Of a DNA stretch of 15,672 bases, positions 546-15,672 are shown piece after piece; the first letter of the stretch is position 1, and each line of letters begins with the position of its first letter. The position numbers and the translations under genes are program-made. Source of the stretch: a virus (Duplodnaviria > Heunggongvirae > Uroviricota > Caudoviricetes); the IMG/VR virus record IMGVR_UViG_2582580934_000010; one strand, 5' to 3'. The notes under the pieces are model-generated. The model searched no databases and was not told where the DNA came from. It saw nothing but the letters and a program-made list of their open reading frames with translations.

Positions 546-1214
546 ATGGTGAAATTAATGAAAAAAAACACAGATGATGGGGCTAAAATTTACACACCAC
601 TTACCCTAAAGCTTTATGACTGGTGGGTTTTGGGAGTATCAAATCGGCTTGCATGGGGATGTCCTACAAAGGAACACCTTCTTCCACACTTTCTGGAACA
701 TTTAGGTAACAACCATCTGGATATTGGTGTTGGAACTGGGTTTTACCTTACTCACGTACCTGAGAGTAGTCTGATATCTTTAATGGATTTGAACGAAGCT
801 AGCCTGAACGCGGCATCTACAAGGGCTGGGGAATCAAAAATTAAACATAAAATTAGCCATGATGTTTTTGAACCTTATCCCGCGGCGTTACATGGTCAAT
901 TTGATTCCATTTCCATGTTTTACCTTCTTCACTGCCTGCCTGGAAATATATCTACAAAAAGCTGTGTAATACGCAATGCGGCGCAGGCCTTAACTGACGA
1001 TGGAACTCTATACGGAGCCACAATTCTTGGCGATGGAGTTGTGCACAATAGCTTCGGTCAAAAACTGATGCGCATTTACAATCAGAAAGGCATCTTTTCA
1101 AACACAAAAGATTCCGAAGAAGGCTTAACACATATACTCTCAGAGCATTTCGAGAATGTTAAAACCAAGGTTCAAGGTACTGTAGTAATGTTTTCCGCTT
1201 CAGGGAAAAAATAG
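546..1214 (+). CDS. ybcY: Class I SAM-dependent methyltransferase (YbcY-like moron between the tfa remnants)
   Basis: 222-aa ORF with ATG start and a glycine-rich SAM-binding motif I (LDIGVGTGFY). Position between tfaD and tfaX matches the K-12 DLP12 arrangement as I recall it. No DNA-methyltransferase DPPY/NPPY motif seen. Confidence 0.7.
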   Translation: MVKLMKKNTDDGAKIYTPLTLKLYDWWVLGVSNRLAWGCPTKEHLLPHFLEHLGNNHLDIGVGTGFYLTHVPESSLISLMDLNEASLNAASTRAGESKIKHKISHDVFEPYPAALHGQFDSISMFYLLHCLPGNISTKSCVIRNAAQALTDDGTLYGATILGDGVVHNSFGQKLMRIYNQKGIFSNTKDSEEGLTHILSEHFENVKTKVQGTVVMFSASGKK

Positions 1215-1268: not shown

Positions 1269-1691
1269 TTACTCCCTGACAGGGTTCGTAGGCCACTCAA
1301 TATCAGGTGCAGTTGATGTATCAACACGGTTCAGCAACACCCGATACTTTTTCCAGGCTTCCAGCAACAAGGTTTCTTCCTCCGTTGCGATCTCCAGATC
1401 CACAGCATCCTGAAGCGGCGCTATATGCTCACTGGCTACCTGCATCAGGCTGTTTTTTGTTTCTTCCGCCTCACGGATCCGGAACAGTTTTTCTGCTTCC
1501 GTATCCTTCACCCAAGCTGTGCCGTTCCACTTCTGAAACTCCCCTTCCGGGGATAACCAGGTGACATTTTCCGGTAATGAGCCGAGTTCAGAAATAAATA
1601 ACGCGTCGCCGGAAGCCACGTCATAAACCGTTTTACCCCGATGATCTTCAACGAGATGCCACGATGCCTCATCACTGTTGAAAACAGCCAC
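1269..1691 (-). pseudogene. tfaD: Tail fibre assembly protein Tfa, 5'-truncated (tfaD-like); the only in-frame start is a GTG that corresponds to an internal Val of lambda Tfa
   Basis: The 140 aa align with lambda Tfa from ...[18 protein letters not shown] to the C-terminus. Manual translation upstream continues in frame as [37 protein letters not shown] (Tfa-like) and then hits a stop at 1884-1886 without any ATG. Confidence 0.8.
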
Positions 1692-1896
1692 AAAGCCAGC
1701 AGGAATATCTGGTGGTGCAATATCGGTACTGTTTGCTGGCAGACCTGTATGAGGCGGAATATATGCATCACCTTCACCAATAAATTCATTAGTTCCGGCC
1801 AGGCACCAATATTTTTCGTAAAGGTGTCTTTGCCAGGGATATCCGCACCGTTCTGATCTTTCTGCAGACGTTTCTCGGCATTGTCATAGGCTGTTT

Positions 1897-4355
<2,459 letters not shown>

Positions 4356-4381
<26 letters not shown>

Positions 4382-4901
4382 TCAGCAACCCCGGTATCAG
4401 TTCATCCAGCGCGGCTGCTTTGTTCATGGCTTTGATGATATCCCGTTTCAGGAAATCAACATGTCGGTTTTCCAGTTCCGGAAAACGCCGCTGCACCGAC
4501 AGGGGGATCCCGTCGAGAATACTGGCAATTTCACCTGCGATCCGCGACAGCACGAAAGTACAGAATGCGGTTTCCACCACTTCAGCGGAGTCTCTGGCAT
4601 TTTTCAGCTCCTGTGCGTCGGCCTGCGCACGCGTAAGTCGATGGCGTTCGTACTCAATAGTCCCTGGCTGGAGATCTGTCTCGCTGGCCTGTCGCAGTTC
4701 TTCAACCTCCCGGCGCAGCTTTTCGTTCTCAATTTCAGCATCCCTTTCGGCATACCATTTTATGACGGCGGCAGAGTCATAAAGCACCTCATTACCCTTC
4801 CCACCGCCTCGCAGAACGGGCATTCCCTGCTCCTGCCAGTTCTGAATGGTACGGATACTCGCGCCGAAAATTTCAGCCAGCTGCTTTTTGTTGACTTCCA
4901 T
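4356..4901 (-). CDS. nohD: Terminase small subunit Nu1
   Basis: 181 aa MEVNKKQLAEIFGASIRTIQNWQEQGMPVLRGGGKGNEVLYD..., lambda Nu1-like with the N-terminal winged-HTH that binds cosB. Confidence 0.95.
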
Positions 4902-5090
4902 TGTTCATTCCACGGACAAAAACAGAGAAAGGAAACGACAGTGGCCAAAAAGCCCGTTTTCAGCACCTGTCGTTTCCTTTCTTTTCAGAGGGTATTTTAA
5001 ATAAAAACATTAAGTTATGACGAAGAAGAACGGAAACGCCTTAAACCGGAAAATTTTCATAAATAGCGAAAACCCGCGAGGTCGCCGCCC
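4902..5090 (-). promoter_or_regulatory. cos: cos site: cosB (Nu1/IHF-binding region) at 4902-5078 and cosN 12-nt cohesive-end sequence at 5079-5090
   Basis: Plus strand 5079-5090 is AGGTCGCCGCCC, the reverse complement of the lambda cohesive end GGGCGGCGACCT. The reverse complement of 4902-5090 reads like the lambda left end (GGGCGGCGACCTCGCGGGTTTTCGCTATTTATGAAAATTTTCCGG...), ending at the Nu1 ATG. Confidence 0.85.
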
Positions 5091-5289
5091 CGTAACCTGT
5101 CGGATCGCCGGAAAGGACCCGCAAAATGATAATAATTATCATCTACATGTCACAACGTGCATCTACGCCATCAAACCACGTCAAATAATCAATTATGACG
5201 CAGGTATCGTATTAATTGATCCGCATCAACTTAACGTAAAAACAACTTCAGACAATACAAATCAGCGACACTGAATACGGGGCAACCTC

Positions 5290-5484
5290 ATGTCAACGAA
5301 GAACAGAACCCGCAGAACAACAACCCGCAACATCCGCTTTCCTAACCAAATGATTGAACAAATTAACATCGCTCTTGATCAAAAAGGGTCCGGGAATTTC
5401 TCAGCCTGGGTCATTGAAGCCTGCCGTCGGAGGCTAACGTCAGAAAAGAGAGCATATACATCAATTAAAAGTGATGAAGAATGA
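5290..5484 (+). CDS. ylcI: Small ribbon-helix-helix-like protein (YlcI-like, DUF3950)
   Basis: 64 aa with ATG start; motif IRFPNQMIEQINIALDQKGSGNFSAWVIEACRRRL resembles RHH (CopG/Arc-type) DNA-binding folds; located between cos and bor as in DLP12. Confidence 0.55.
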   Translation: MSTKNRTRRTTTRNIRFPNQMIEQINIALDQKGSGNFSAWVIEACRRRLTSEKRAYTSIKSDEE

Positions 5485-5648
5485 ACATCCCGCGTTCTTC
5501 CCTCCGAACAGGACGATATTGTAAATTCACTTAATTACGAGGGCATTGCAGTAATTGAGTTGCAGTTTTACCACTTTCCTGACAGTGACAGACTGCGTGT
5601 TGGCTCTGTCACAGGTTAAGTAGTTTGAATGATTAGCAGTTATGGTGA

Positions 5649-5855
5649 TCAGTCAACCACCAGGGAATAATCCTTCATATTATTATCGTGCTTCACCAAC
5701 GCTGCCTCAATTGCCCTGAATGCTTCCAGAGACACCTTATGTTCTATACATGCAATTACAACATCAGGGTAACTCATAGAAATGGTGCTATTAAGCATAT
5801 TTTTTACACGAATCAGATCCACGGAGGGATCATCAGCAGATTGTTCTTTATTCAT
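5649..5855 (-). CDS. ybcW: Uncharacterised 68-aa protein (YbcW-like)
   Basis: ATG start preceded by a GGAG Shine-Dalgarno; length and position match DLP12 ybcW as recalled; convergent with ylcI. Confidence 0.5.
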
Positions 5856-6140
5856 TTTGTCGCTCCATGCGCTTGCTCTTCATCTAGCGGTTAAAATATT
5901 ACTTCAAATCTTTCTGTATGAAGATTTGAGCACGTTGGCCTTACATACATCTGTCGGTTGTATTTCCCTCCAGAATGCCAGCAGGACCGCACTTTGTTAC
6001 ACAACCAATACTATTAATTGAAAACATTCCTAATATTTGACATAAATCATCAACAAAACACAAAGAGGTCAGACCAGATTGAAACGATAAAAACGATAAT
6101 GCAAACTACGCGCCCTCGTATCACATGGAAGGTTTTACCA

Positions 6141-6551
6141 ATGGCTCAGGTTGCCATTTTTAAAGAAATATTCGATCAAGTGCGAAAAGATTTAAACTGT
6201 GAATTGTTTTATTCTGAACTAAAACGTCACAATGTCTCACATTATATTTACTATCTAGCCACAGATAATATTCACATTGTGTTAGAAAACGATAACACTG
6301 TGTTAATAAAAGGACTTAAAAAGGTTGTAAATGTTAAATTCTCAAGAAATACGCATCTTATAGAAACGTCCTTTGATAGGTTGAAATCAAGAGAAATCAC
6401 ATTTCAGCAATACAGGGAAAATCTTGCTAAAGCAGGAGTTTTCCGATGGGTTACAAATATCCACGAACATAAAAGATATTACTATACCTTTGATAATTCA
6501 TTACTATTTACTGAGAGCATTCAGAACACTACACAAATCTTTCCACGCTAA
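6141..6551 (+). CDS. ybcV: DUF1398-family protein (YbcV-like), 136 aa
   Basis: The track ORF 6018..6551 starts at a TTG. I chose the internal ATG at 6141, which has a GGAAGG Shine-Dalgarno 8 nt upstream and gives 136 aa, the length I recall for K-12 YbcV. A TTGACA -35-like hexamer lies at 6036-6041. Confidence 0.55.
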
Positions 6552-6841
6552 ATCATAACGTCCGGTTTCTTCCGTGTCAGCACCGGGGCGTTGGCATAAT
6601 GCAATACGTGTACGCGCTAAACCCTGTGTGCATCGTTTTTAATTATTCCCGGACACTCCCGCAGAGAAGTTCCCCGTCAGGGCTGTGGACATAGTTAATC
6701 CGGGAATACAATGACGATTCATCGCACCTGACATACATTAATAAATATTAACAATATGAAATTTCAACTCATTGTTTAGGGTTTGTTTAATTTTCTACAC
6801 ATACGATTCTGCGAACTTCAAAAAGCATCGGGAATAACACC

Positions 6842-7135
6842 ATGAAAAAAATGCTACTCGCTACTGCGCTGGCCCTGCTTATTACAGGATGTGCTCAACA
6901 GACGTTTACTGTTCAAAACAAACAGACAGCAGTAGCACCAAAGGAAACCATCACCCATCATTTCTTCGTTTCTGGAATTGGGCAGAAGAAAACTGTCGAT
7001 GCAGCCAAAATTTGTGGCGGCGCAGAAAATGTTGTTAAAACAGAAACCCAGCAAACATTCGTAAATGGATTGCTCGGTTTTATTACTTTAGGCATTTATA
7101 CTCCGCTGGAAGCGCGTGTGTATTGCTCAAAATAA
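6842..7135 (+). CDS. borD: Bor lipoprotein (serum-resistance outer-membrane lipoprotein), 97 aa
   Basis: MKKMLLATALALLITGCAQQ... carries a lipobox (LITGC) and is near-identical to lambda Bor as recalled; on the opposite strand to the lysis genes, as in lambda. Confidence 0.9.
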   Translation: MKKMLLATALALLITGCAQQTFTVQNKQTAVAPKETITHHFFVSGIGQKKTVDAAKICGGAENVVKTETQQTFVNGLLGFITLGIYTPLEARVYCSK

Positions 7136-7166
7136 TTGCATGAGTTGCCCATCGATATGGTCAGCT

Positions 7167-7628
7167 CTATCTGCACTGCTCATTAATATACTTCTGGGTT
7201 CCTTCCAGTTGTTTTTGCATAGTGATCAGCCTCTCTCTGAGGGTGAAATAATCCCGTTCAGCGGTGTCTGCCAGTCGGGGGGAGGCTGCATTATCCACGC
7301 CGGAGGCCGTGGTGGCTTCACGCACTGACTGACAGACTGCTTTGATGTGCAACCGACGACGACCAGCGGCAACATCATCACGCAGAGCATCATTTTCAGC
7401 TTTCGCATCAGCTAACTCCTTCGTGTATTTTGCATCGAGCGCAGCAACATCACGCTGACGCATCTGCATGTCAGTAATTGCCGCGTTCGCTAGCTTCAGT
7501 TCTCTGGCATTTTTGTCGCGCTGGGCTTTGTAGGCGATTGCGTTATCACGGTAATGATTGACCGCCCATGACAGGCTGACGATGATGCAGATAATCAGAG
7601 CGGATATAATCGCGGTTACTCTGCTCAC
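7167..7628 (-). CDS. rzpD: Spanin inner-membrane subunit Rz (i-spanin)
   Basis: Matches lambda Rz ([10 protein letters not shown]...KYINEQCR). The likely start is the GTG at 7626-7628, which corresponds to the Met of lambda Rz and overlaps the R stop; the track's upstream GTG at 7640 is the alternative. Confidence 0.8.
7226..7408 (-). CDS. rzoD: Spanin outer-membrane lipoprotein Rz1 (o-spanin), embedded in the +1 frame of Rz
   Basis: 60 aa [24 protein letters not shown]... with a lipobox (VVGC) and a proline-rich C-terminus; the embedded architecture is as in lambda Rz/Rz1. Confidence 0.8.
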
Positions 7629-8122
7629 TGTTGCCCCCACAAACAGACTTCACGCTCAATCTCACGACGAGTCATCAGGCCTTTCCATTGCTTACCGCCA
7701 GCGTATGTCCAGCGACGCAGCTGATCACATGCGCCTTTGATATCGCCCTGGTTTATTTTGCGAAGAAGCGTCGATGTTCTGAAATTGCCAGCACCCACGT
7801 TGTAAACGAATGAGTAAAGAGCGCCGCGCGTTGTTTCCGGTATATCGACTTTGATATACGGGTTAATTTGTCTGGCGACAGTGGCAAGGTCTTTATTCAA
7901 GAGTGCTTTGCATTCTGCTTTGGTATACGTTTTACCGAGCATGATGTCTTTTCCGGTGTGTCCGTGACATACAGTCCATACACCAACAATATCTTTGTAT
8001 GGTATGTAGCTGACACCTTCCAGACCATCGTTACCACTTGGGCCAGTGATTAACACTGATGCTATAGCAATTGCTCCGCCACCAATAGCAGCAGCAACGG
8101 CTTTTCGTAATGATGGAGGCAT
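7625..8122 (-). CDS. rrrD: SAR endolysin (phage 21 R / P1 Lyz type lysozyme)
   Basis: 165 aa; N-terminal Gly/Ala-rich signal-anchor-release segment ([20 protein letters not shown]) followed by an E-x8-D-x5-T catalytic triad ([16 protein letters not shown]); ATG start. Confidence 0.85.
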
Positions 8123-8337
8123 TATTCACCTCTCGCAGCCTTGCGCTTATCTTCTTTAATCTTGAAATAAAGGTTTGTCAGGTACGTCAGCAGGCCAAAT
8201 ACCAGGCTACCCAGCACACCTATTGCTGCCCACTGTGAGGGAGTGACTTTATCGAGCAGCTGTAAAAACCAGTAACCGGCACTACCTGCTGAGGTGCCAT
8301 AGGCGACTCCAGTTGTTAACTTATCCATGAATTTCAT
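8122..8337 (-). CDS. essD: Pinholin (S21-type holin/antiholin with dual start MKFM)
   Basis: The track ORF starts at a TTG at 8382. I chose the ATG at 8335-8337, which has a GAGGTGG Shine-Dalgarno 3 nt upstream and gives the 71-aa protein [14 protein letters not shown]...[11 protein letters not shown] with two transmembrane segments and a Met1/Met4 dual start. Confidence 0.85.
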
Positions 8338-8925
8338 AACCCCACCTCGCAGACAAAGCGGGTGTAAATTGAGGGAATACAACGTATCGCAAAAAAGCAG
8401 AAACGTAACTGACTCCGAGTCAGTGAATAACTCAGGTATTGAGTTATCAGCTAATATCGAGACTCAAAAAATGGAAAAACCAGCTCGACGGCGGGTTTAA
8501 GCTGTGTGACGAAGTAACCACTCTTAACAGCATAACCAATTTTTTACGTACGTAAACCACTGAATGATATTTATGAGAATGCTACCGAGTGTTCAAAACA
8601 TCACCACAAATACATAAGAAAACCTCAACAAATAACCAATAAATAATTTCCAGTGTTATTTTTAGCCGGTTTAAATTAAACAGACGAATTATAGAACCAC
8701 CATAAATAACAGCCATTAATATAAATTAGCTAATAGATTTATTTTTGTTCAAATAAGAGCCATAAATAGGTTTCGATAGAAAAAGTTCAGATAAAAATAG
8801 AGATCTACTTCACAAATTAAATGAGAAACTAAAACTTACATCTTGAAATAATCACATTGATTAGATGAATATTTATCGCGCAGTGACATCATTTTTTAAT
8901 AATAGTTCAAAAAAAAGGGCTCACG

Positions 8926-10023
8926 ATGAAAAAATTAACAGTGGCAATTTCTGCTGTAGCTGCATCAGTACTGATGGCGATGTCTGCTCAGGCAGCTGAA
9001 ATTTATAATAAAGACAGTAACAAGCTGGATCTGTACGGGAAAGTTAATGCCAAGCACTACTTTTCCTCTAACGATGCAGATGATGGTGATACTACTTATG
9101 TTCGTCTGGGCTTCAAAGGCGAAACCCAAATCAACGATCAGCTGACTGGTTTCGGTCAGTGGGAATATGAATTCAAAGGCAACCGCGCTGAATCTCAAGG
9201 TTCCTCCAAAGACAAAACCCGTCTTGCATTTGCAGGCCTGAAATTCGGTGACTACGGCTCAATCGATTACGGCCGTAACTACGGTGTAGCATACGACATC
9301 GGTGCGTGGACTGACGTTCTGCCAGAATTCGGTGGCGATACCTGGACCCAAACAGATGTGTTCATGACTGGTCGCACCACTGGTGTTGCAACCTATCGTA
9401 ACAACGACTTCTTTGGTCTGGTTGATGGTCTGAACTTTGCTGCTCAGTACCAAGGCAAAAACGATCGTAGCGATTTCGATAACTACACCGAAGGTAACGG
9501 TGATGGCTTCGGTTTCTCTGCTACCTATGAATACGAAGGATTCGGTATCGGTGCAACTTATGCGAAATCTGATCGTACCGACACTCAAGTTAATGCAGGG
9601 AAAGTTCTTCCTGAAGTATTTGCTTCCGGTAAAAATGCAGAAGTTTGGGCCGCAGGTCTGAAATATGACGCTAACAACATTTACCTGGCCACTACCTATT
9701 CTGAAACCCAGAATATGACTGTATTTGCTGATCACTTCGTTGCTAATAAAGCTCAAAACTTCGAAGCTGTTGCACAATATCAGTTCGATTTCGGTCTGCG
9801 TCCGTCCGTTGCTTACCTGCAATCTAAAGGTAAGGATCTTGGAGTATGGGGCGATCAGGACTTAGTCAAATATGTTGATGTAGGTGCAACCTATTACTTC
9901 AACAAAAATATGTCTACTTTCGTTGATTACAAAATCAACCTGCTTGACAAAAATGACTTCACTAAAGCACTCGGTGTAAGCACTGATGACATCGTTGCTG
10001 TAGGTCTGGTTTACCAGTTCTAA
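8926..10023 (+). CDS. nmpC: Outer-membrane general porin, NmpC/OmpD/OmpC family (intact, 365 aa with signal peptide)
   Basis: Signal peptide [23 protein letters not shown] followed by AEIYNKD; typical porin motifs and the C-terminal aromatic residue (...VGLVYQF); lies between Q and the lysis cassette on the opposite strand. Confidence 0.9.
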
Positions 10024-10039
10024 TCTGATTACGAAAAAG

Positions 10040-10073
10040 ATATGTTGCGGGAGGCGTTGCCTCCCCAACATAT
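10040..10073 (-). terminator. Strong hairpin (15-bp stem with one bulge, GTT loop) followed on the minus strand by CTTTTT; candidate tR'-like terminator of the late leader transcript
   Basis: ATATGTTG(C)GGGAGGC-GTT-GCCTCCC-CAACATAT read from the sequence. The U-tract follows only on the minus strand. Confidence 0.4.
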
Positions 10074-10161
10074 AAGTGGCTCCCTCAAGCCACTTCCTTT
10101 AGGAGCACAACCTTGCTTCTAACTATATAAACCTTCTGTTATATATTACCCTTTATTTTTG

Positions 10162-10190
10162 GGGGCGTTGCAACGCCCCATTTTTAATAA
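10162..10190 (+). terminator. Perfect 18-nt palindrome GGGGCGTTGCAACGCCCC followed by ATTTTTAATAA; candidate rho-independent terminator of the porin gene
   Basis: GC-rich stem plus T-tract on the plus strand, 140 nt after the porin stop codon. Confidence 0.45.
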
Positions 10191-10212
10191 CTTTCAGTAA
10201 ACAATTGGCATA

Positions 10213-10596
10213 TTAATTAGAGTTATTAACAACGATATCCATCTCTAACCGGATATCTAATGCCATTAACATCCCTTCAATTATGCCCTCAGCCTTCTGT
10301 AACCTTTTCCCGATATAACCATCAGAGCAGCAATGCTTACCTGCCAGTGACATGAATGTCATACCGACTACATAATAATCTACTAATAAATCGTGCAAAT
10401 CGCTGTTGTTCTTTTTCAGACGGGCCATGCACCCGCAAATGATCATCGCGTCATCGTCACAACATTGCGGGCGAGATTTTACTTTTGAAGGAATTAATCC
10501 CTTAAAACCGGCGGCAATGGACGACCAGGTCACATCTTCATGATTATTAGCCGCCCACGCTCCCCAACGTTCAAGAACCATCTGAATATCACGCAT
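10213..10596 (-). CDS. quuD: Late-gene antiterminator Q (phage 21/82-type, QuuD-like), 127 aa
   Basis: The track ORF starts at a TTG at 10611; the ATG at 10594-10596 gives 127 aa [22 protein letters not shown]... with Cys-rich segments ([19 protein letters not shown]). Positioned upstream of the lysis cassette on the same strand. Confidence 0.8.
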
Positions 10597-10721
10597 TAAC
10601 TTTCTCCACAAAATCAGGCCAGCACACCAATCGCCAGTGCGCGATCGATAAAACGAAATATCAGCTCCAGCTGGGAGCCATACTTCTCTTCAAATGCCAC
10701 GGTATCCACAACAGTAGTAAT

Positions 10722-11213
10722 CTACAGATTGCCGTTAAGTTTTCTGGACAACTCCTCAATGGATGGAGGCGATACGTAATCCGGATTTTTATTCATCAGA
10801 AACTTATTTTCACAGTGGAGGCACCTGCTTTTATGAAAAAGCTCATCTTCGCTAACCGGGAATGGTTGAAGTATCGATACTATCTTTTGTCCAAAACATT
10901 TTGGGCAAAGATGCATGGTTATGCTGCCACCGTTCACGATTACCTCCTTCGAGTATACAAAAGTACCCGACTCAAGTTGGTTAAGGATATAGCCTTCCGT
11001 CTGAGCCTCAAAGTTTTCGAATTCTGCAATTTTAGCTTTGAGAGAAGCATTTATTTCTTGATAAGAGCCCACCAGTTCAACGAGAGACACGCATTCGCGC
11101 TGAATAGACGCAAGCTTTGAGTTCAGCTCACCAATAGCCGCATTTACTTCAGCTTGAGTTTTTGCCTCGTTCATTAGTTTTGCAATCTGGGCTGTTTCAC
11201 GAATAGCCGTCAT
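10722..11213 (-). CDS. Hypothetical protein: N-terminal coiled-coil (~70 aa) plus C-terminal CxxC-x21-CxxC zinc-ribbon-like domain; no family recognised
   Basis: The track ORF (259 aa) begins in low-complexity sequence that reads through the upstream repeats. The plausible start is the ATG at 11211-11213 (163 aa, weak Shine-Dalgarno) or the GTG at 11235-11237 (171 aa, AAGAG 8 nt upstream). Heptad-like N-terminus (AQIAKLMNEAKTQAEVNAAIGELNSKLASIQRE...), then HLCPKCFGQKIV...SRCLHCENKF. Confidence 0.5.
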   Translation of the reverse strand: MTAIRETAQIAKLMNEAKTQAEVNAAIGELNSKLASIQRECVSLVELVGSYQEINASLKAKIAEFENFEAQTEGYILNQLESGTFVYSKEVIVNGGSITMHLCPKCFGQKIVSILQPFPVSEDELFHKSRCLHCENKFLMNKNPDYVSPPSIEELSRKLNGNL

Positions 11214-11251
11214 TGCTGCCGTTAATTCAGCGATCACATTGAATACTCTTA

Positions 11252-11297
11252 TTGTTGTTGGGGATATCCAGATTAACCGAATCCTTGTTGTTGGGGA
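11252..11297. repeat. Two direct copies of TTGTTGTTGGGGA (11252-11264 and 11285-11297), 33 bp apart, immediately upstream of the 10722..11213 gene
   Basis: Exact 13-bp match read from the sequence; on the minus strand the motif is TCCCCAACAACAA. Confidence 0.7.
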
Positions 11298-11379
11298 ATA
11301 ACCAGGTCCACCTCGCCTGATGTGGCTAAAAGCAGGCACATAACAGCTAAGTATTTTCAACCAGAGAGAATCCTTAGCG

Positions 11380-11570
11380 TTGTGGTGAATGCGGCTCAGC
11401 GCACGCGGGTTAAGGTTGAGGCTGACAGTCGACCTTCTGTGGACACCCACCCGCCTGGTGTGCAACCTTCGCCAGGCACCGGGAGGCACCCGGCACCACA
11501 ACTTTATGCTGTGTGTAGTCCTGGCGGTACCAGTTTGTACCCTTGCTTCCGGCTGGTACCGTCCTTTTTT
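11380..11570 (+). ncRNA. Candidate structured RNA or leader element: GC-rich non-coding segment with several potential stems, ending in a terminator (stem CGGTACCAG/CTGGTACCG at 11525-11561 plus CTTTTTT at 11564-11570)
   Basis: No plausible protein in any frame (translations are Pro/Arg-rich). Local GC is clearly higher than in the flanks. Helices include GCGGG/CCCGC, CCTGG/CCAGG and CCGGG/CCCGG, with a terminal hairpin plus U-tract on the plus strand. Confidence 0.25.
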
Positions 11571-11571
11571 G

Positions 11572-11658
11572 CAAAACAGAGAAGAGCATCACCGGACGAC
11601 GGGCTCATAACCCAATCCATCCGGGCGGCTGCCACCGCAGGTGTTCTTCTCTGTTTTG
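11572..11658. repeat. 14-bp perfect inverted repeat CAAAACAGAGAAGA (11572-11585) / TCTTCTCTGTTTTG (11645-11658) bracketing a 59-bp GC-rich spacer, about 50 bp upstream of the yfdP-like start
   Basis: Read directly from the sequence. Confidence 0.7.
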
Positions 11659-11707
11659 TGGAGAAACCAACCGACCTTGCAGGGTCGATATGATGAGGAG
11701 CAGCAAA

Positions 11708-12070
11708 ATGGCTAGCGAACGCAGTACTGATGTGCAGGCATTTATCGGGGAGCTGGACGGCGGCGTATTTGAAACCAAAATCGGCGCAGTTCTCAGTGAG
11801 GTCGCTTCCGGTGTGATGAACACGAAAACCAAAGGGAAGGTCTCACTCAATCTGGAAATCGAACCGTTTGATGAGAACCGTGTGAAAATCAAACACAAAC
11901 TCTCATATGTTCGCCCAACTAACCGCGGGAAAATTTCCGAAGAAGACACCACCGAAACGCCGATGTATGTCAATCGCGGTGGTCGCCTGACTATTCTGCA
12001 GGAAGACCAGGGACAATTACTGACTCTTGCCGGTGAACCTGACGGAAAACTCCGCGCAGCAGGTCGTTAA
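11708..12070 (+). CDS. yfdP: Hypothetical protein, YfdP-like (120 aa); first gene of the int-proximal plus-strand operon
   Basis: The track ORF starts at 11543; I chose the ATG at 11708, preceded by GAGGAG with 7-nt spacing, which gives 120 aa MASERSTDVQAFIGELDGG.... Length and neighbours match the K-12 CPS-53 yfdP-Q-R-S-T series as recalled. Confidence 0.55.
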   Translation: MASERSTDVQAFIGELDGGVFETKIGAVLSEVASGVMNTKTKGKVSLNLEIEPFDENRVKIKHKLSYVRPTNRGKISEEDTTETPMYVNRGGRLTILQEDQGQLLTLAGEPDGKLRAAGR

Positions 12071-12135
12071 TATCGTTCGTAATAAACTGATTATTTATCT
12101 CATCACTGAATATCTTTATATAGTGAGGACTTATT

Positions 12136-12960
12136 ATGTCTCAGAACTTAGACGCAACCGCAATTAATCAAATCCATGCCCTTATTTCTGCTCAGGGTGT
12201 TAATGAAATTATCAGTAAGATTGGTGCCGATGCTGTGGCATTGCCTGAGAATTTCCGCATTCATGATCTGGAAAAATTTAATTTAAATCGCTTCCGTTTC
12301 CGTGGTGCGCTTTCCACTGCCAGCATCGATGACTTTACCCGTTATTCTAAAGATCTTGCAGATGAAGGCACCCGCTGCTTTATCGATGCTGATAATATGC
12401 GTGCCGTCAGTGTGCTTAACCTGGGTACTATTGATGAGCCAGGTCACGCAGATAACACTGCCACTCTCAAACTGAAAAAGACAGCACCGTTCTCTGCTCT
12501 GTTGTCTGTTAACGGCGAGCGTAACTCCCAGAAGTCACTGGCAGAATGGATCGAAGACTGGGCCGACTACCTTGTGGGCTTTGATGCTAATGGTGACGCC
12601 ATTCAAGCAACAAAAGCGGCTGCGGCAGTCCGTAAAATCACGATTGAAGCAAACCAGACCGCTGATTTTGAAGATAATGACTTCAGCGGCAAACGCTCCC
12701 TGATGGAGTCTGTCGAAGCGAAGACCAAAGACATTATGCCAGTGGCATTTGAATTTAAATGCGTTCCGTTTGAAGGTCTGAAAGAACGTCCGTTTAAATT
12801 ACGCCTCAGCATTATCACTGGCGATCGTCCTGTACTGGTTCTGCGCATTATTCAGCTGGAAGCGGTGCAGGAAGAAATGGCTAACGAATTTCGTGATCTG
12901 CTTGTTGAGAAATTCAAAGACAGCAAAGTAGAAACCTTTATTGGTACTTTCACCGCCTGA
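12136..12960 (+). CDS. yfdQ: Hypothetical protein, YfdQ-like (DUF2303), 274 aa
   Basis: ATG start with a GAGGA Shine-Dalgarno; length and context match YfdQ as recalled. Confidence 0.6.
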
Positions 12961-12972
12961 TTTCATTACTGC

Positions 12973-12999
12973 AAATGCCCCTGCGGGGGCATTTATGGA
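12973..12999 (+). terminator. Hairpin AAATGCCCC-TGCG-GGGGCATTT followed by ATTTAT; possible attenuator or terminator after the yfdQ-like gene
   Basis: GC-rich 9-bp stem 13 nt after the stop codon; the U-tract is short. Confidence 0.3.
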
Positions 13000-13087
13000 A
13001 ACGTAATTAACTCAATAATCACCGGATGGTGAGGGCTTCCTTTTACCAGAATTCAGCGCGGTGCAGTGCATATACGTGGAGAACAAA

Positions 13088-13624
13088 ATGTCATTTATTA
13101 AAACTTTTTCCGGGAAGCATTTTTATTATGACAAGATAAATAAAGACGACATCGATATTAACGATATCGCGGTTTCCCTTTCAAATATCTGTCGCTTTGC
13201 CGGTCATCTTTCGCACTTCTACAGCGTCGCCCAACATGCGGTTCTTTGCAGCCAGCTGGTGCCGCAGGAATTTGCTTTTGAAGCGTTAATGCATGATGCA
13301 ACAGAAGCGTATTGCCAGGACATTCCCGCACCACTGAAACGCCTTCTTCCTGACTATAAACGGATGGAAGAAAAAATAGACGCCGTAATCCGTGAGAAAT
13401 ACGGGTTACCCCCAGTTATGAGTACACCCGTGAAATATGCCGATCTCATCATGCTGGCAACCGAACGCCGCGATCTCGGGCTTGATGATGGCTCTTTCTG
13501 GCCTGTACTGGAAGGCATCCCGGCAACAGAGATGTTCAACGTGATTCCACTGGCACCGGGTCATGCCTACGGGATGTTTATGGAACGTTTTAACGATTTA
13601 TCGGAGTTACGCAAATGCGCATGA
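13088..13624 (+). CDS. yfdR: HD-domain phosphohydrolase, YfdR-like (5'-deoxynucleotidase family), 178 aa
   Basis: The internal ATG at 13088 has a GGAG Shine-Dalgarno and gives 178 aa. His...HD metal-binding signature (FAGHLSHF...LMHDATEAY). Confidence 0.65.
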   Translation: MSFIKTFSGKHFYYDKINKDDIDINDIAVSLSNICRFAGHLSHFYSVAQHAVLCSQLVPQEFAFEALMHDATEAYCQDIPAPLKRLLPDYKRMEEKIDAVIREKYGLPPVMSTPVKYADLIMLATERRDLGLDDGSFWPVLEGIPATEMFNVIPLAPGHAYGMFMERFNDLSELRKCA

Positions 13625-13977
13625 ATGTTTTCGAAATGGAAGGGTTTCTTCGCGGGAAATGTGTACCGCGAGATCTGAAAGTGAACGAAACAAATGCTGA
13701 GTACCTGTTACGTAAATTCGACGCGCTTGAAGCTAAATGTGCGGCACTGGAAAACAAAATAATACCAGTGTCAGCTGAACTGCCACCAGCAAATGAAAGT
13801 GTTCTGTTATTTGATGCTAATGGAGAAGGCTGGCTGATTGGCTGGCGTTCTCTCTGGTACACCTGGGGACAAAAAGAAACCGGAGAATGGCAGTGGACAT
13901 TTCAGGTCGGGGACCTTGAAAACGTCAATATCACTCACTGGGCAGTAATGCCAAAAGCACCGGAGGCTGGAGCATAA
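13615..13977 (+). CDS. yfdS: Hypothetical protein, YfdS-like (DUF551-type), 120 aa
   Basis: Overlaps the yfdR stop; Trp-rich C-terminus (GEGWLIGWRSLWYTWGQKETGEWQW); length matches YfdS. Confidence 0.55.
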   Translation: MRMNVFEMEGFLRGKCVPRDLKVNETNAEYLLRKFDALEAKCAALENKIIPVSAELPPANESVLLFDANGEGWLIGWRSLWYTWGQKETGEWQWTFQVGDLENVNITHWAVMPKAPEAGA

Positions 13978-14282
13978 TGACCACATTTACCAATAAAGAA
14001 CTGATTAAAGAAATCAAAGAACGAATCAGCAGCCTAGAGGTTCGAGACGATATTGAGCGCCGTGCTTATGAAATCGCACTCGTATCTCTGGAAGTAGAGC
14101 CAGATGAACGCGAAGCCTATGAATTATTCATGGAAAAGCGTTTCGGTGACTTAGTAGATCGTCGGAGAGTAAAAAACGGCGATAACGAATACATGGCATG
14201 GGATATGACTCTCGGTTGGATCGTCTGGCAGCAACGAGCTGGTATCCATTTTTCAACAATGACACAGCAAGAGGTGAAATAA
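13977..14282 (+). CDS. yfdT: Hypothetical protein, YfdT-like, 101 aa
   Basis: TAATG overlap with the yfdS stop; length and position match YfdT. Confidence 0.55.
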   Translation: MTTFTNKELIKEIKERISSLEVRDDIERRAYEIALVSLEVEPDEREAYELFMEKRFGDLVDRRRVKNGDNEYMAWDMTLGWIVWQQRAGIHFSTMTQQEVK

Positions 14283-14653
14283 TGGAGCCATACAGCCTCA
14301 CACTCGATGAGGCCTGTCAGTTTCTTAAGATATCCAGACCAACCGCCACCAACTGGATACGAACAGGCCGCCTACAGGCAACACGTAAAGATCCAACCAA
14401 GCCAAAATCTCCTTACCTCACAACACGGCAAGCTTGCATTGCGGCGCTTCAGTCTCCGCTGCATACTGTCCAGGTGAGCGCGGGTGATGGCATAACAGAG
14501 GAAAGAAAATGTCACTCTTCCGCAGAAATGAAATATGGTATGCCTCGTATTCGCTCCCGGGCGGGAAACGAATTAAGGAATCTCTTGGCACAAAGGACAA
14601 GCGGCAAGCTCAGGAGTTGCACGACAAGCGAAAAGCAGAACTCTGGCGAGTAG
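14282..14653 (+). CDS. Excisionase-like HTH protein (Xis/AlpA/TorI family); the 3' end overlaps the int start by 145 nt, so the functional length is uncertain
   Basis: The ATG at 14282 overlaps the yfdT stop and follows a GAGGTG Shine-Dalgarno. N-terminal HTH-like segment [30 protein letters not shown]; immediately upstream of the integrase. Confidence 0.5.
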
Positions 14654-15672
14654 AAAAGCTAGGGGATTTACCTGATGTCACTTTTGAAGAGGCCTGCCTA
14701 AGATGGCTTGAGGAAAAAGCTGATAAAAAATCTCTCGATTCAGATAAAAGCCGGATTGAGTTCTGGCTTGAACATTTTGAGGGTATAAGGCTTAAAGATA
14801 TCTCGGAGGCAAAGATTTACTCTGCTGTAAGCAGAATGCATAACAGAAAGACGAAAGAAATATGGAAACAGAAAGTTCAGGCCGCCATCAGGAAAGGTAA
14901 AGAACCGCCTGTTTATGAACCAAAGCCAGTATCAACTCAGACAAAGGCAAAGCATCTTGCCATGATAAAGGCCATTCTCCGTGCTGCAGAACGCGACTGG
15001 AAGTGGCTGGAAAAAGCGCCTGTCATCAAGATACCAGCGGTCAGAAACAAGCGAGTCAGATGGCTGGAAAAGGAGGAAGCAAAACGCCTTATTGATGAGT
15101 GCCCCGAACCACTGAAATCTGTCGTCAAGTTTGCGCTGGCAACTGGTCTGAGAAAGTCGAACATCATAAATCTGGAATGGCAACAAATCGACATGCAGCG
15201 ACGAGTTGCCTGGGTGAATCCAGAAGAGAGCAAATCAAACCGCGCCATTGGTGTGGCGCTGAACGATACCGCCTGTAAAGTGTTGCGTGATCAAATAGGC
15301 AAGCATCACAAATGGGTGTTTGTACATACCAAGGCGGCTAAGCGAGCAGATGGAACATCAACGCCTGCGGTCAGGAAGATGCGCATCGACAGCAAGACAT
15401 CATGGCTATCAGCTTGTCGTCGTGCAGGAATTGAAGATTTCCGTTTCCATGACCTCAGACACACCTGGGCAAGCTGGCTGATCCAGTCAGGCGTCCCATT
15501 ATCTGTGCTTCAGGAAATGGGCGGATGGGAGTCCATAGAAATGGTTCGTAGGTATGCTCACCTTGCGCCTAATCATTTGACAGAGCATGCAAGGAAAATA
15601 GACGACATTTTTGGTGATAATGTCCCAAATATGTCCCACTGTGGAATTATGGAGGATATAAAGAAGGCGTAA
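14509..15672 (+). CDS. intD: Tyrosine integrase, P22/DLP12 IntD-like, 387 aa
   Basis: ATG with a GAGGA Shine-Dalgarno; N-terminus [34 protein letters not shown]; C-terminal catalytic signature HDLRHTWAS...MVRRYAHL (His-x-x-Arg and the Tyr nucleophile). Confidence 0.9.

Follow-up and report, generated by a model that had tools for sequence, protein, structure and literature searches.

Can a cryptic prophage that keeps a cos site and terminase but has no capsid genes be carried out of its host in particles supplied by another phage? This question is raised by the window, the whole 15,672-nucleotide stretch of DNA that we analyzed (IMG/VR record IMGVR_UViG_2582580934_000010). A sequence-only reading had seen in it a defective prophage with an intact packaging module and had proposed that a co-resident lambdoid helper could package and transduce the locus. 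The first part of this interpretation, including the absence of capsid genes, survived all of the sequence tests applied; the second part did not. The window is in all likelihood a nearly whole DLP12-family cryptic prophage at argU of E. coli, recently derived by deletion from a lambda-type prophage. Despite its apparently working cos and terminase, the element is very probably an ordinary decaying prophage that is not mobilizable: all that is needed for excision, copying or full packaging has been lost from it. The finding is an ordinary one. The features on which the analysis turns are collected in Table 1.

Table 1. Features of the window, in order of position
Feature	Position	Strand	Basis and details
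tfa, tail-fiber assembly gene	1269..1802	-	RefSeq; PHROG 105 tail fiber assembly; kept downstream of deletion 1
Side tail-fiber C-terminal remnant	1802..1946	-	RefSeq: incomplete phage tail protein
B' remnant, first 104-105 codons of portal gene	1947..2256	-	RefSeq: incomplete portal protein; lambda B is 533 aa
W, head-completion (head-tail joining) protein	2253..2459	-	68 aa, full length; 67/68 identical to lambda
A, terminase large subunit	2456..4381	-	641 aa, full length; 640/641 identical to lambda; Pfam PF05876 and PF20454
Nu1/nohD, terminase small subunit	4356..4901	-	181 aa, full length; 178/181 identical to lambda; Pfam Phage_Nu1 PF07471
cosB	4925..5040	-	R3 5025-5040; I1/IHF spacer 4984-5024; R2 4968-4983 (inverted); R1 4925-4940
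cosN, 12-nt cohesive end GGGCGGCGACCT	5079..5090	-	single exact match, 0 mismatches, unique in window
cosQ heptamer GGGTCCT, packaging-termination subsite	5114..5120	-	inside conserved block CGGGTCCTTTCCGG
Lysis cassette essD-rrrD-rzpD	7167..8328	-	RefSeq; Pfam holin, lysozyme, Phage_lysis
quuD, Q-type late antiterminator	10213..10596	-	RefSeq; PHROG 79 anti-termination protein Q-like
Deletion junction 2	10707..10721	.	6,638 bp fewer than strain 2014C-4587 (spans 20,364 - 13,726 bp)
HTH gene stub at xis position	14282..14347	+	66 bp; RefSeq: incomplete, C terminus missing; putative xis by position only
intD integrase, intact	14509..15672	+	RefSeq; adjoins tRNA-Arg (argU), just outside the window

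The cos site and the terminase genes

The match of cosN to lambda that had been noted from the letters is indeed exact, and shuffled sequences contained a mean of only 0.02 matches to GGGCGGCGACCT. Alignment showed that identity to lambda is unbroken from 16 bp upstream of cosN across cosN, R3, the I1 spacer and R2. R1 is identical as well, and the repeats are laid out as in lambda, with R1 and R3 direct and R2 inverted (subsite roles are from PMC4669245). Only the R2-R1 spacer departs from lambda within cosB, by three substitutions and a 1-bp deletion, and that deletion is also present in K-12 DLP12 and in the viable phage PhiR26_1. The cosB of the window is thus nearer to that of lambda than is the cosB of K-12 DLP12, which has changes in R3 and I1. 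The block CGGGTCCTTTCCGG is invariant across lambda, N15, phi80 and the window and lies at an equal distance from cosN; the phi80 record annotates its region as cosQ. We take the boundaries of the cosQ heptamer to be those of Wieczorek & Feiss 2001.

Search and alignment to lambda also bore out that Nu1, A and W are full length, with 98-99.8% identity to their lambda counterparts. The interval 4356-5090, to which the sequence-only reading was attached, spans Nu1, cosB and cosN only; A and W are outside it, at 2253-4381, as is cosQ, at 5114-5120.

Do the terminase genes carry inactivating changes? Their alignment to lambda revealed none that was clear, and four of the five amino acid changes found are present in functional relatives. 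The A protein retains the GpA_ATPase and GpA_nuclease domains with all catalytic motifs as in lambda, and it differs from lambda at T466I only. Although this residue sits beside the invariant D465, Ile is the family consensus at 466 and occurs in three isolated phages and in a near-complete relative, the argU prophage of strain 2014C-4587; we therefore rejected T466I as an inactivating change. Nu1 differs from lambda at D10E, A75T and L132I. T75 and I132 are both found in K-12 nohD, and I132 is found in PhiR26_1. E10 is absent from all deposited lambda-group phages; however, it is the native residue of phi80 TerS, which largely clears D10E. The single change in W, V40L, is private to the lineage.

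The pattern of nucleotide substitution points the same way. Between the A genes of lambda and the window there are 36 synonymous changes and 1 nonsynonymous change (pN/pS 0.008), and 10 of the 12 private substitutions are synonymous; the divergence therefore arose while selection was acting on functional phages. At least 1000 contigs, complete-looking prophages among them, carry the exact gpA allele, and in four loci it stands beside complete B-to-H morphogenesis clusters. From its sequence, we judge that the packaging module is probably active.

Might the module be intact on paper and yet functionally dead or silent, either untranscribed or crippled by Nu1 D10E (in the HTH helix) and W V40L? 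We consider this rather unlikely. The private changes in Nu1 and W are both conservative, the lambda-group phages that lack E10 are answered by functional phi80, and the private substitutions are mainly synonymous, though a subtle defect due to D10E or V40L is conceivable. As for transcription, quuD heads a late operon that continues across the lysis cassette and cos to Nu1-A-W in the same gene order as in K-12, with the lysis cassette upstream of the terminase genes on a shared strand. A 6.6-kb deletion took the region upstream of quuD, the expected seat of pR-type promoters; a promoter/terminator consensus scan of the late region gave no convincing promoter but, with fewer promoter-like matches than in shuffles, was uninformative. 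Against silence, the K-12 DLP12 late region, with its QuuD-dependent lysis cassette, is reportedly expressed (Toba et al. 2011; Rueggeberg et al. 2013).

Relation to DLP12 and losses from the element

The element resembles K-12 DLP12 (qsr') in its argU site, in its intD integrase and in the order of its late genes: quuD, an nmpC-type porin gene, essD-rrrD-rzpD, bor, ybcV, ybcW, ylcI, cos, nohD, tfa, ybcY and tfaX. The cos regions of the two are nearly identical, and the K-12 cos region and nohD work in lambda recombinants (PMC3945230). The two part at A. The sequence-only reading had called the K-12 gene truncated, and it is: K-12 has full nohD, but 309 bp of A remain as the pseudogene aaaD, fused to tfaD. 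In contrast, the window element carries the whole of A, W and 104-105 codons of B. The porin gene and ybcY are intact in the window element and disrupted in K-12. Unlike K-12 DLP12, the window has a CPS-53-like early region from yfdP to yfdT; the nin/rusA segment of K-12 is missing, as are the ompT/appY end and the distal att. The window element is a different deletion allele within the DLP12 prophage family.

A more complete relative is found at argU in strain 2014C-4587. This prophage, like those in many STEC and other strains, matches window positions 1947-15672 at 99.4-99.6% by megablast, and it shares the Q-porin-lysis-cos-Nu1-A-W segment, the intD/argU junction and the I466 allele of A. 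Beyond W it continues into intact B, C, D, E, FI, FII and Z to J; it also has stf and tfa, and a 6.6-kb immunity/replication block that is absent from the window.

The first loss is that of the morphogenetic genes. The B' remnant is identical to the N terminus of lambda gpB at 101 of 105 residues, and the similarity then ends. Read directly, the open reading frame at 1897-2256 runs out of frame from B' into tail-fiber sequence, and window positions 1796-1948 are 89.5% identical to a prophage tail-fiber gene. Deletion junction 1 therefore falls at 1946/1947, where about 19 kb, with the head and tail genes, is gone. The absence of head genes claimed in the sequence-only reading is thus real: B stops at codon 104/105, and the RefSeq annotation of a 99.96%-identical genome lists neither C, D, E, FI and FII nor tail genes in the window and its flanks.

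The second loss, at deletion junction 2, comprises most of a DUF968 gene, KilA-N, RusA, a LexA-family gene, Dam and yfdN, together with a replication HTH gene, ymfL, ymfT (cro-like) and ymfK (cI-like). Neither the annotation nor PHROG scans of the remaining early open reading frames gave any immunity (cI/cro-type) or replication function, and no primase/rep and ori module gene was present in the annotation or among the PHROG matches. With head, tail, immunity and replication genes missing, we rejected the idea that the element is a functional temperate lambda-like prophage.

The third loss concerns excision. In the matching genome, intD lies 16 bp from tRNA-Arg. The att core occurs once in the 39.7-kb locus, inside argU, and a search within 12 kb left of the window gave no distal att; both K-12 and 2014C-4587 keep a distal copy, which in 2014C-4587 lies between envY and ompT. 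The presumptive xis is a stub, in a place where K-12 has the pseudogene xisD beside intD, and the element annotation contains no alpA.

Can a helper mobilize the element?

We then weighed the proposal that the element is a helper-dependent mobilizable unit, with its own cos and terminase and with capsids and tails borrowed from a co-resident lambdoid phage. The intact cos, Nu1, A and integrase gene speak for it, and a role as "proto-hitchers" has been suggested for defective prophages (PMC11389934). We nevertheless find it very unlikely, for reasons of both geometry and gene content.

A lambda-type terminase needs cosN and cosB to start and a second, downstream cosQ and cosN to finish (PMC4669245; PMC6687093). 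In the helper packaging described by Feiss, every chromosomal "passive prophage" that was packaged had one cos upstream of it and another downstream (PMC4669245). The window has one cos. No second cosN with up to one mismatch was found within about 59 kb downstream, where the only matches had two mismatches and were at chance level. Packaging proceeds from cos toward Nu1-A-W, so that the packaged side holds about 4.9 kb of the roughly 15.5-kb element; the other two thirds, with Q, the lysis genes, the porin gene, bor and int, are on the side that is not packaged. Moreover, a unit of this size amounts to roughly one third of a lambda headful.

Unlike lambda, the element has no portal, capsid, FI or tail genes, and its cos is a single chromosomal copy with no concatemer. 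With no distal att, only a stub for xis and the loss of the repressor, cro and replication genes, the element should not form a circle or concatemer containing cos. Nor would the resident terminase help: any helper with lambda-type proheads has a lambda-type terminase of its own, so Nu1 and A add nothing to mobilization.

Known cases of packaging in trans sharpen this contrast. The defective lambdoid prophages of O157 Sakai nearly always have intact terminase and are missing morphogenetic genes, as in the window (Asadulghani et al. 2009; PMC2669165), and the defective prophage Sp4 was packaged in trans via a cos common to Sp14 (PMC2669165). However, the packaged Sakai elements were first amplified and excised as circles, in the case of Sp4 by the replication of a neighboring prophage followed by circular excision (PMC2669165), and the window element has no means for either. 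Cos-type PICIs such as EcCICFT073 and the satellite P4 are also similar to it, at about 10-15 kb with an integrase, lambda-like cosQ/cosN and use of helper capsids (PMC9026076). Yet PICIs excise and replicate, rpp replaces terS in them, and the R sites of lambda cosB are missing from them (PMC9026076). The window element, in contrast, combines a lambda cosB with a TerS, a TerL and a lysis cassette of its own, and replication and induction genes are absent. Apart from the integrase, it shows none of the excision, replication and packaging-redirection features of PICIs or satellites, and we rejected its membership in either group.

Surveys of where the element occurs do not favor mobilization either. 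Among 13 genomes whose A is at least 99.9% identical to that of the window, 10 have no second lambda-type A locus. The other three, strains CPww7, F8 and CUVM3, hold a second A-homologous locus, which could, in principle, be a helper or provide a second cos elsewhere. In IMG/VR, junction 1 is found on three contigs only: two are fragments that run colinear with the integrated element and have cos in their interior, and one is a fragment of 3 kb. Judging by their identifiers, these contigs seem to be prophage calls from isolate genomes and not virome sequences.

A variant of the proposal is an analogue of lateral transduction, in which terminase, once a lambda-type helper or the late operon of the element is active, would cut the chromosomal cos, packaging would run in one direction into VgrG, cus and ent/fep, some single-cos particles would mature by nuclease trimming or a fortuitous cut and move about 45 kb of host DNA, and the resident terminase would serve helpers whose TerS ignores lambda cosB; we give this next to no credence, and cos phages perform neither generalized nor lateral transduction (PMC12829572; PMC8575938; PMC6687093).

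We conclude that the element is, with high probability, a nonmobilizable remnant. Its single cos, missing distal att, xis stub and lack of replication genes, with most of its length on the unpackaged side, argue against a locus mobilized or transduced by a helper. The case carries a caution: in cos-type systems, an intact cos and terminase in a prophage remnant do not imply mobilizability, because termination needs a second cos and because excision and replication must come first.

Distribution, origin and expected behavior

How common is this allele, and is its terminase kept for a reason? A full-length lambda-type A is present in 3,260 of 5,426 complete E. coli genomes, and deletion junction 1 in just 14 of them; 13TMH22 and AMSCJX02 are among the carrier strains. 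The 11 full-length matches listed are 99.9-100% identical across the whole window, and in many genomes the match to the window begins only at position 1947. By comparison, the K-12-type junction, in which A is destroyed, is found in 368 genomes and is about 26 times commoner. Other independently truncated remnants were seen, A is in many cases fused in frame to tail genes, and in many other lineages the deletions end inside A; such deletions evidently recur.

These counts bear on the suggestion that selection has kept terminase and cos for a benefit to host or prophage, through interference with lambda-like phages or as domesticated DNA processing. Domestication of defective prophage genes is documented (cited in PMC11389934), and the intact open reading frames and the low pN/pS of A relative to lambda would fit. 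However, a low pN/pS is expected equally from recent descent from working phages, and complete-looking prophages carry the identical allele. The variant is rare and nearly clonal, many other lineages have lost part of A, and a resident terminase facing its own chromosomal cos is a liability, able to break the chromosome that carries it. We regard selective retention as extremely improbable, and nothing indicates that the module is maintained for a purpose.

Recent decay accounts for the same features as follows. One deletion would have run from codon 104/105 of the portal gene B to the 3' part of the side tail-fiber gene, removing the head and tail genes; a second, of 6.6 kb, would have removed the repressor, cro and replication genes; and a flanking rearrangement would have removed the distal att site. 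On this account, cosQ-cosN-cosB and Nu1-A-W survive because the first deletion ended in B and not, as in K-12, in A, and because the time elapsed has been too short for decay. The ancestor is modeled here on the prophage of 2014C-4587, which is itself divergent; its A differs from that of the window at 33 nucleotides, in mosaic blocks.

What would the module do if the late operon were turned on? With its own QuuD or a helper Q of matching specificity, Nu1/A and IHF would be expected to assemble on cosB and nick the chromosomal cosN. If a helper supplied lambda-type proheads, DNA would be reeled in from cos via Nu1-A-W-tfa into the host cus and ent/fep region. Since no cos lies downstream, packaging would not terminate, and it would leave a double-strand break in the chromosome or an abortive particle without a tail; the element would not be transferred. 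The chromosomal cos and resident terminase are together a potential site of self-inflicted breakage. As background, single-cos "doc" particles (Sternberg & Weisberg 1975) and terminase lethality (Murialdo 1988) have been reported.

Realistically, the element would serve infecting lambda-like phages as a source of cos, Nu1, A, W and lysis-gene sequence, acquired through homologous recombination. K-12 DLP12 has been shown to act as such a donor: recombinants between lambda and DLP12 cluster at cos, and they are viable with nu1, R or Rz from DLP12 (PMC3945230). The value of the window is mostly one of bookkeeping, as a rare and less-decayed DLP12-family allele that has kept the lambda terminase operon whole. 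Compared with K-12 DLP12, it gives an infecting lambda-like phage about 3.4 kb of additional homology, in all of A, W and B', and with this extra homology the element can donate or rescue terminase genes in addition to cos and lysis genes.

A DLP12-family prophage and its packaging module

Many E. coli chromosomes match the 15.7-kb window essentially exactly. Strain 13TMH22 is 99.96% identical to it (7 mismatches), and the RefSeq annotation of that strain makes the window almost all of a small prophage at the argU tRNA-Arg gene. Gene order is the same as in DLP12, the cryptic prophage of K-12 at argU; there, unlike in the window, IS5 splits the porin gene and ybcY has become a pseudogene. DLP12 has a full nohD but its A is a 309-bp pseudogene, the truncation that the sequence-only reading had given for K-12. 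The element belongs to the DLP12 family and carries a different deletion allele.

Features of the window element (RefSeq annotation; minus-strand late region in reading order, window right to left) and of other loci
Feature	Sequence	Position	Strand	Remarks
intD	window		plus	far right; adjoins argU
quuD (Q antiterminator)	window		minus	first in late region
nmpC-type porin gene	window	8926-10023	plus	365 aa; intact; opposite strand to late region
essD-rrrD-rzpD (lysis), then bor, ybcV, ybcW, ylcI	window		minus	
cosN	window	5079-5090	minus	
nohD (Nu1)	window		minus	181 aa
A ("terminase large subunit")	window	2456-4381	minus	641 aa
W ("head-tail joining protein")	window		minus	68 aa
Incomplete portal gene (B'), incomplete tail gene	window	1946/1947 (junction)	minus	
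tfa	window			
ybcY-type class I SAM methyltransferase gene	window	546-1214	plus	222 aa; intact
tfa stub	window			
VgrG cluster	L001	8106-12000		left flank of window
K-like C40 peptidase gene; tail chaperone G	L006	2274-3016, 7016-7438		2014C-4587
Cargo cassette	L007	5428-7641		near-complete relative
Same deletion allele, later IS insertions	L017	3832-6134		
Same deletion allele, later IS insertions	L014	2764-3461		
Head cluster ending after D	L021	15037-21841		
Head cluster ending after D	L023	15037-18129		

The lambda cohesive-end sequence GGGCGGCGACCT occurs once in the window (0.02 chance matches in shuffles), bearing out the earlier claim of an exact lambda cosN; the interval then assigned to the module, 4356-5090, covers Nu1, cosB and cosN but nothing else of it. 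Aligned to a lambda cos reference rebuilt as the junction of both genome ends, the window shows no difference over a stretch that begins 16 bp upstream of cosN and takes in cosN, R3, the I1 spacer and R2; R1 is identical too. What differs in cosB is confined to the R2-R1 spacer, namely 3 substitutions and a 1-bp deletion, and the same deletion is present in K-12 DLP12 and the isolated phage PhiR26_1. A repeat scan found R1 and R3 direct and R2 inverted, the lambda architecture. Lambda, N15, phi80 and the window share the invariant block CGGGTCCTTTCCGG upstream of cosN; the phi80 record labels this region cosQ, and two nearby substitutions relative to lambda are phi80 and PhiR26_1 alleles.

Nu1, A and W had been called full length, and alignment to lambda agrees: 178 of 181, 640 of 641 and 67 of 68 residues are identical, respectively. 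Portal gene B retains only its first 104-105 codons, joined out of frame to tail-fibre sequence, and the RefSeq annotation of the element contains no capsid or tail genes, as claimed for the capsid. Might the sole amino-acid change in A, T466I, which adjoins invariant D465, be inactivating? An alignment of 24 gpA homologues, the most distant at 69% identity, has isoleucine as its consensus at column 466, and all invariant motif residues are unchanged in the window A. Three isolated phages (PhiR30_1, Turner and PhiR46_1) encode exactly the 50-aa peptide with I466, and I466 is also present in the near-complete argU prophage of E. coli strain 2014C-4587. The Ile consensus and the isolated phages argue against inactivation. 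Of the Nu1 changes, T75 and I132 are both in K-12 nohD, and I132 also in PhiR26_1. D10E is private to the window lineage, being absent from deposited lambda-group phages, and Glu is native at that position in phi80 TerS. W V40L is conservative.

The nucleotide differences between A and its lambda counterpart comprise 36 synonymous changes and 1 non-synonymous change (pN/pS 0.008), and 10 of the 12 private substitutions of the window lineage over Nu1-A-W are synonymous. The exact 641-aa gpA is encoded on at least 1000 public contigs and adjoins apparently complete B-C-D-E-FI-FII-Z-U-V-G-T-H clusters in several unrelated mosaic prophages (L016, L018, L019 and L022). Judged by sequence, the packaging module is probably active, since its I466 and Nu1 variants occur in relatives, its changes are biased towards synonymous ones, and the same gpA lies beside apparently complete clusters.

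Origin by deletion

At argU, 2014C-4587 carries the same Q-porin-lysis-cos-Nu1-A-W segment, followed beyond W by intact B, C, D, E, FI, FII, Z, U, V, G, T, H, M, L, K, I, J, lom, stf and tfa. A 6.6-kb block separating quuD from yfdP-yfdT holds cI-like ymfK, cro-like ymfT, and replication, Dam, RusA and KilA-N genes. Because this prophage occupies the same site and carries these extra blocks, we conclude that two deletions gave rise to the window element. In deletion 1, ~19 kb was lost between B codon 104/105 and a point ~145 bp before the tail-fibre gene end; deletion 2 removed 6,638 bp, as calculated from match spans between the window and 2014C-4587. Many genomes match the window only from 1947 onwards, exactly the B' junction. 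A survived because deletion 1 ended in B, and nothing suggests that the module was kept for a purpose.

The 2014C-4587 prophage may itself be defective. Its K-like C40 peptidase gene is frameshifted, tail chaperone G has an internal stop, and the xis position holds the same 66-bp HTH stub as in the window. The near-complete relative (L007) also has cargo between tfa and the methyltransferase gene (a general stress protein, 2 ferritin-like proteins and manganese catalase) that is absent from the window element.

The deletion-1 junction is present in 14 of 5,426 complete E. coli genomes, and an A gene at least 99.9% identical to that of the window in 13. Among the matches listed, the 11 full-length window matches are 99.9-100% identical; hence the carriers are nearly clonal. 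The K-12-type A'/tfaD junction occurs in 368 genomes and a full-length lambda-type A in 3,260, and three other loci (L020, L021 and L023) are further remnants truncated at different points. By these comparisons, deletions in the A/head region are common and have many endpoints.

A homology search also found chimeric E. coli ORFs, in many assemblies, that join the N-terminal ~70-85% of gpA in frame to domains of tail-fibre (PF07484/PF03406), gpJ (PF09327/PF12421) or portal (PF05136) type (P0014, P0019, P0025, P0037-P0043, P0046-P0047, P0056 and others); among them is P0040 (1030 aa), encoded on 59 contigs. Deletions that have an end inside A seem to be recurrent, some of them widespread. Two loci with the window's deletion allele, L017 and L014, have later insertions: an IS21-family element splits the lysozyme gene rrrD, and IS1 lies near the quuD-proximal junction. 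Decay is thus ongoing in their lysis and early regions, with A still intact. In L021 and L023, a lambda-type head cluster with the same gpA allele ends after decoration gene D. It is followed in L023 by integrase, AlpA and IS1, and in L021 by AlpA and a D5_N/DUF5906 primase, where a P4- or PICI-like element has entered the capsid genes or taken their place. Between Q and the holin gene, both prophages encode KwaA/KwaB (Kiwa defence).

A single cos and helper packaging

The sequence-only reading proposed that a lambdoid helper could in principle package and transduce the locus. gpA docks on the lambda-type portal, and a helper with such proheads comes with a lambda-specific terminase of its own, so for mobilisation nothing would be gained from the resident one. 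In lambda-like phages, packaging starts at cosN plus cosB, terminase remains on the cosB end and feeds it into the prohead, and finishing requires another cos (cosQ plus cosN) further downstream; the helper-packaged chromosomal "passive prophages" of the Feiss laboratory each had one cos upstream and another downstream (PMC4669245). According to reviews and recent papers, without the terminal cut protruding DNA blocks tail attachment, and cos phages perform no generalised or lateral transduction (PMC6687093; PMC8575938; PMC12829572).

Packaging from this cos would run from 5079 towards position 1, then into host genes: a truncated hydrolase gene, DcrB, VgrG, cusSRCFBA, pheP and fepA/ent. No second cosN with at most 1 mismatch lies in the ~59 kb downstream, where 2-mismatch matches are at chance level. 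The packaged side holds only ~4.9 kb of the element, the unpackaged side Q, the lysis genes, the porin gene, bor and int. The distal att copy, between envY and ompT in K-12 and 2014C-4587, was missing from the 12 kb searched left of the window, having been lost through a left-flank rearrangement that put a VgrG island in place of the K-12 segment. On the carrier chromosome, this cluster of VgrG, DcrB-related and frameshifted genes replaces tfaX-appY-ompT-envY-ybcH-nfrAB and abuts a 5'-truncated alpha/beta hydrolase gene. Annotation and scans of the remaining ORFs found no replication or regulatory genes. With these and the distal att gone and only the stub where xis would be, the element cannot form a cos-bearing circle or concatemer. 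The module is intact and, by sequence, probably functional, but helper mobilisation is not supported: there is one cos, most of the element would stay unpackaged, and means of excision or replication are lacking.

A PICI or satellite identity is rejected, as the element is without excision competence, a replication module, rpp or a cos lacking cosB, and has its own lysis and terminase genes. It is an example of a kind already described, the defective lambdoid prophages of O157 Sakai that retain intact terminase without morphogenetic genes (PMC2669165).

In 10 of the 13 genomes with the near-identical A, that gene is the sole lambda-type A locus, and strain AMSCJX02 has no lambda-type portal sequence other than the B' fragment. 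Three IMG/VR contigs carry the deletion-1 junction: L012 and L013 are pieces colinear with the integrated element, with cos inside them, and L011 is a 3-kb fragment. Their IDs look like isolate-genome prophage calls, not virome contigs.

Probable behaviour and recombination

The alignments establish the element's structure, sequence integrity and deletion origin. Were the late operon transcribed, Nu1 and A with IHF would be expected to nick the chromosomal cosN, and with helper proheads the nick would start abortive, one-ended packaging. What has been documented for the K-12 homologue is recombination: lambda propagated on K-12 acquires a DLP12 marker at high frequency, half of the sequenced junctions adjoin cos, and recombinants remain viable with nu1, R or Rz from DLP12 (De Paepe et al. 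2014, PMC3945230). Compared with K-12 DLP12, the window element has ~3.4 kb more sequence of 98% homology (A, W and B') available for exchange with lambda-like phages. Its A gene is a mosaic in which blocks of synonymous variants alternate between PhiR26_1 (roughly alignment columns 1245-1630) and the 2014C-4587 prophage (roughly 820-1000 and 1900-2400), a pattern that fits repeated homologous exchange between terminase genes of the lambda type.
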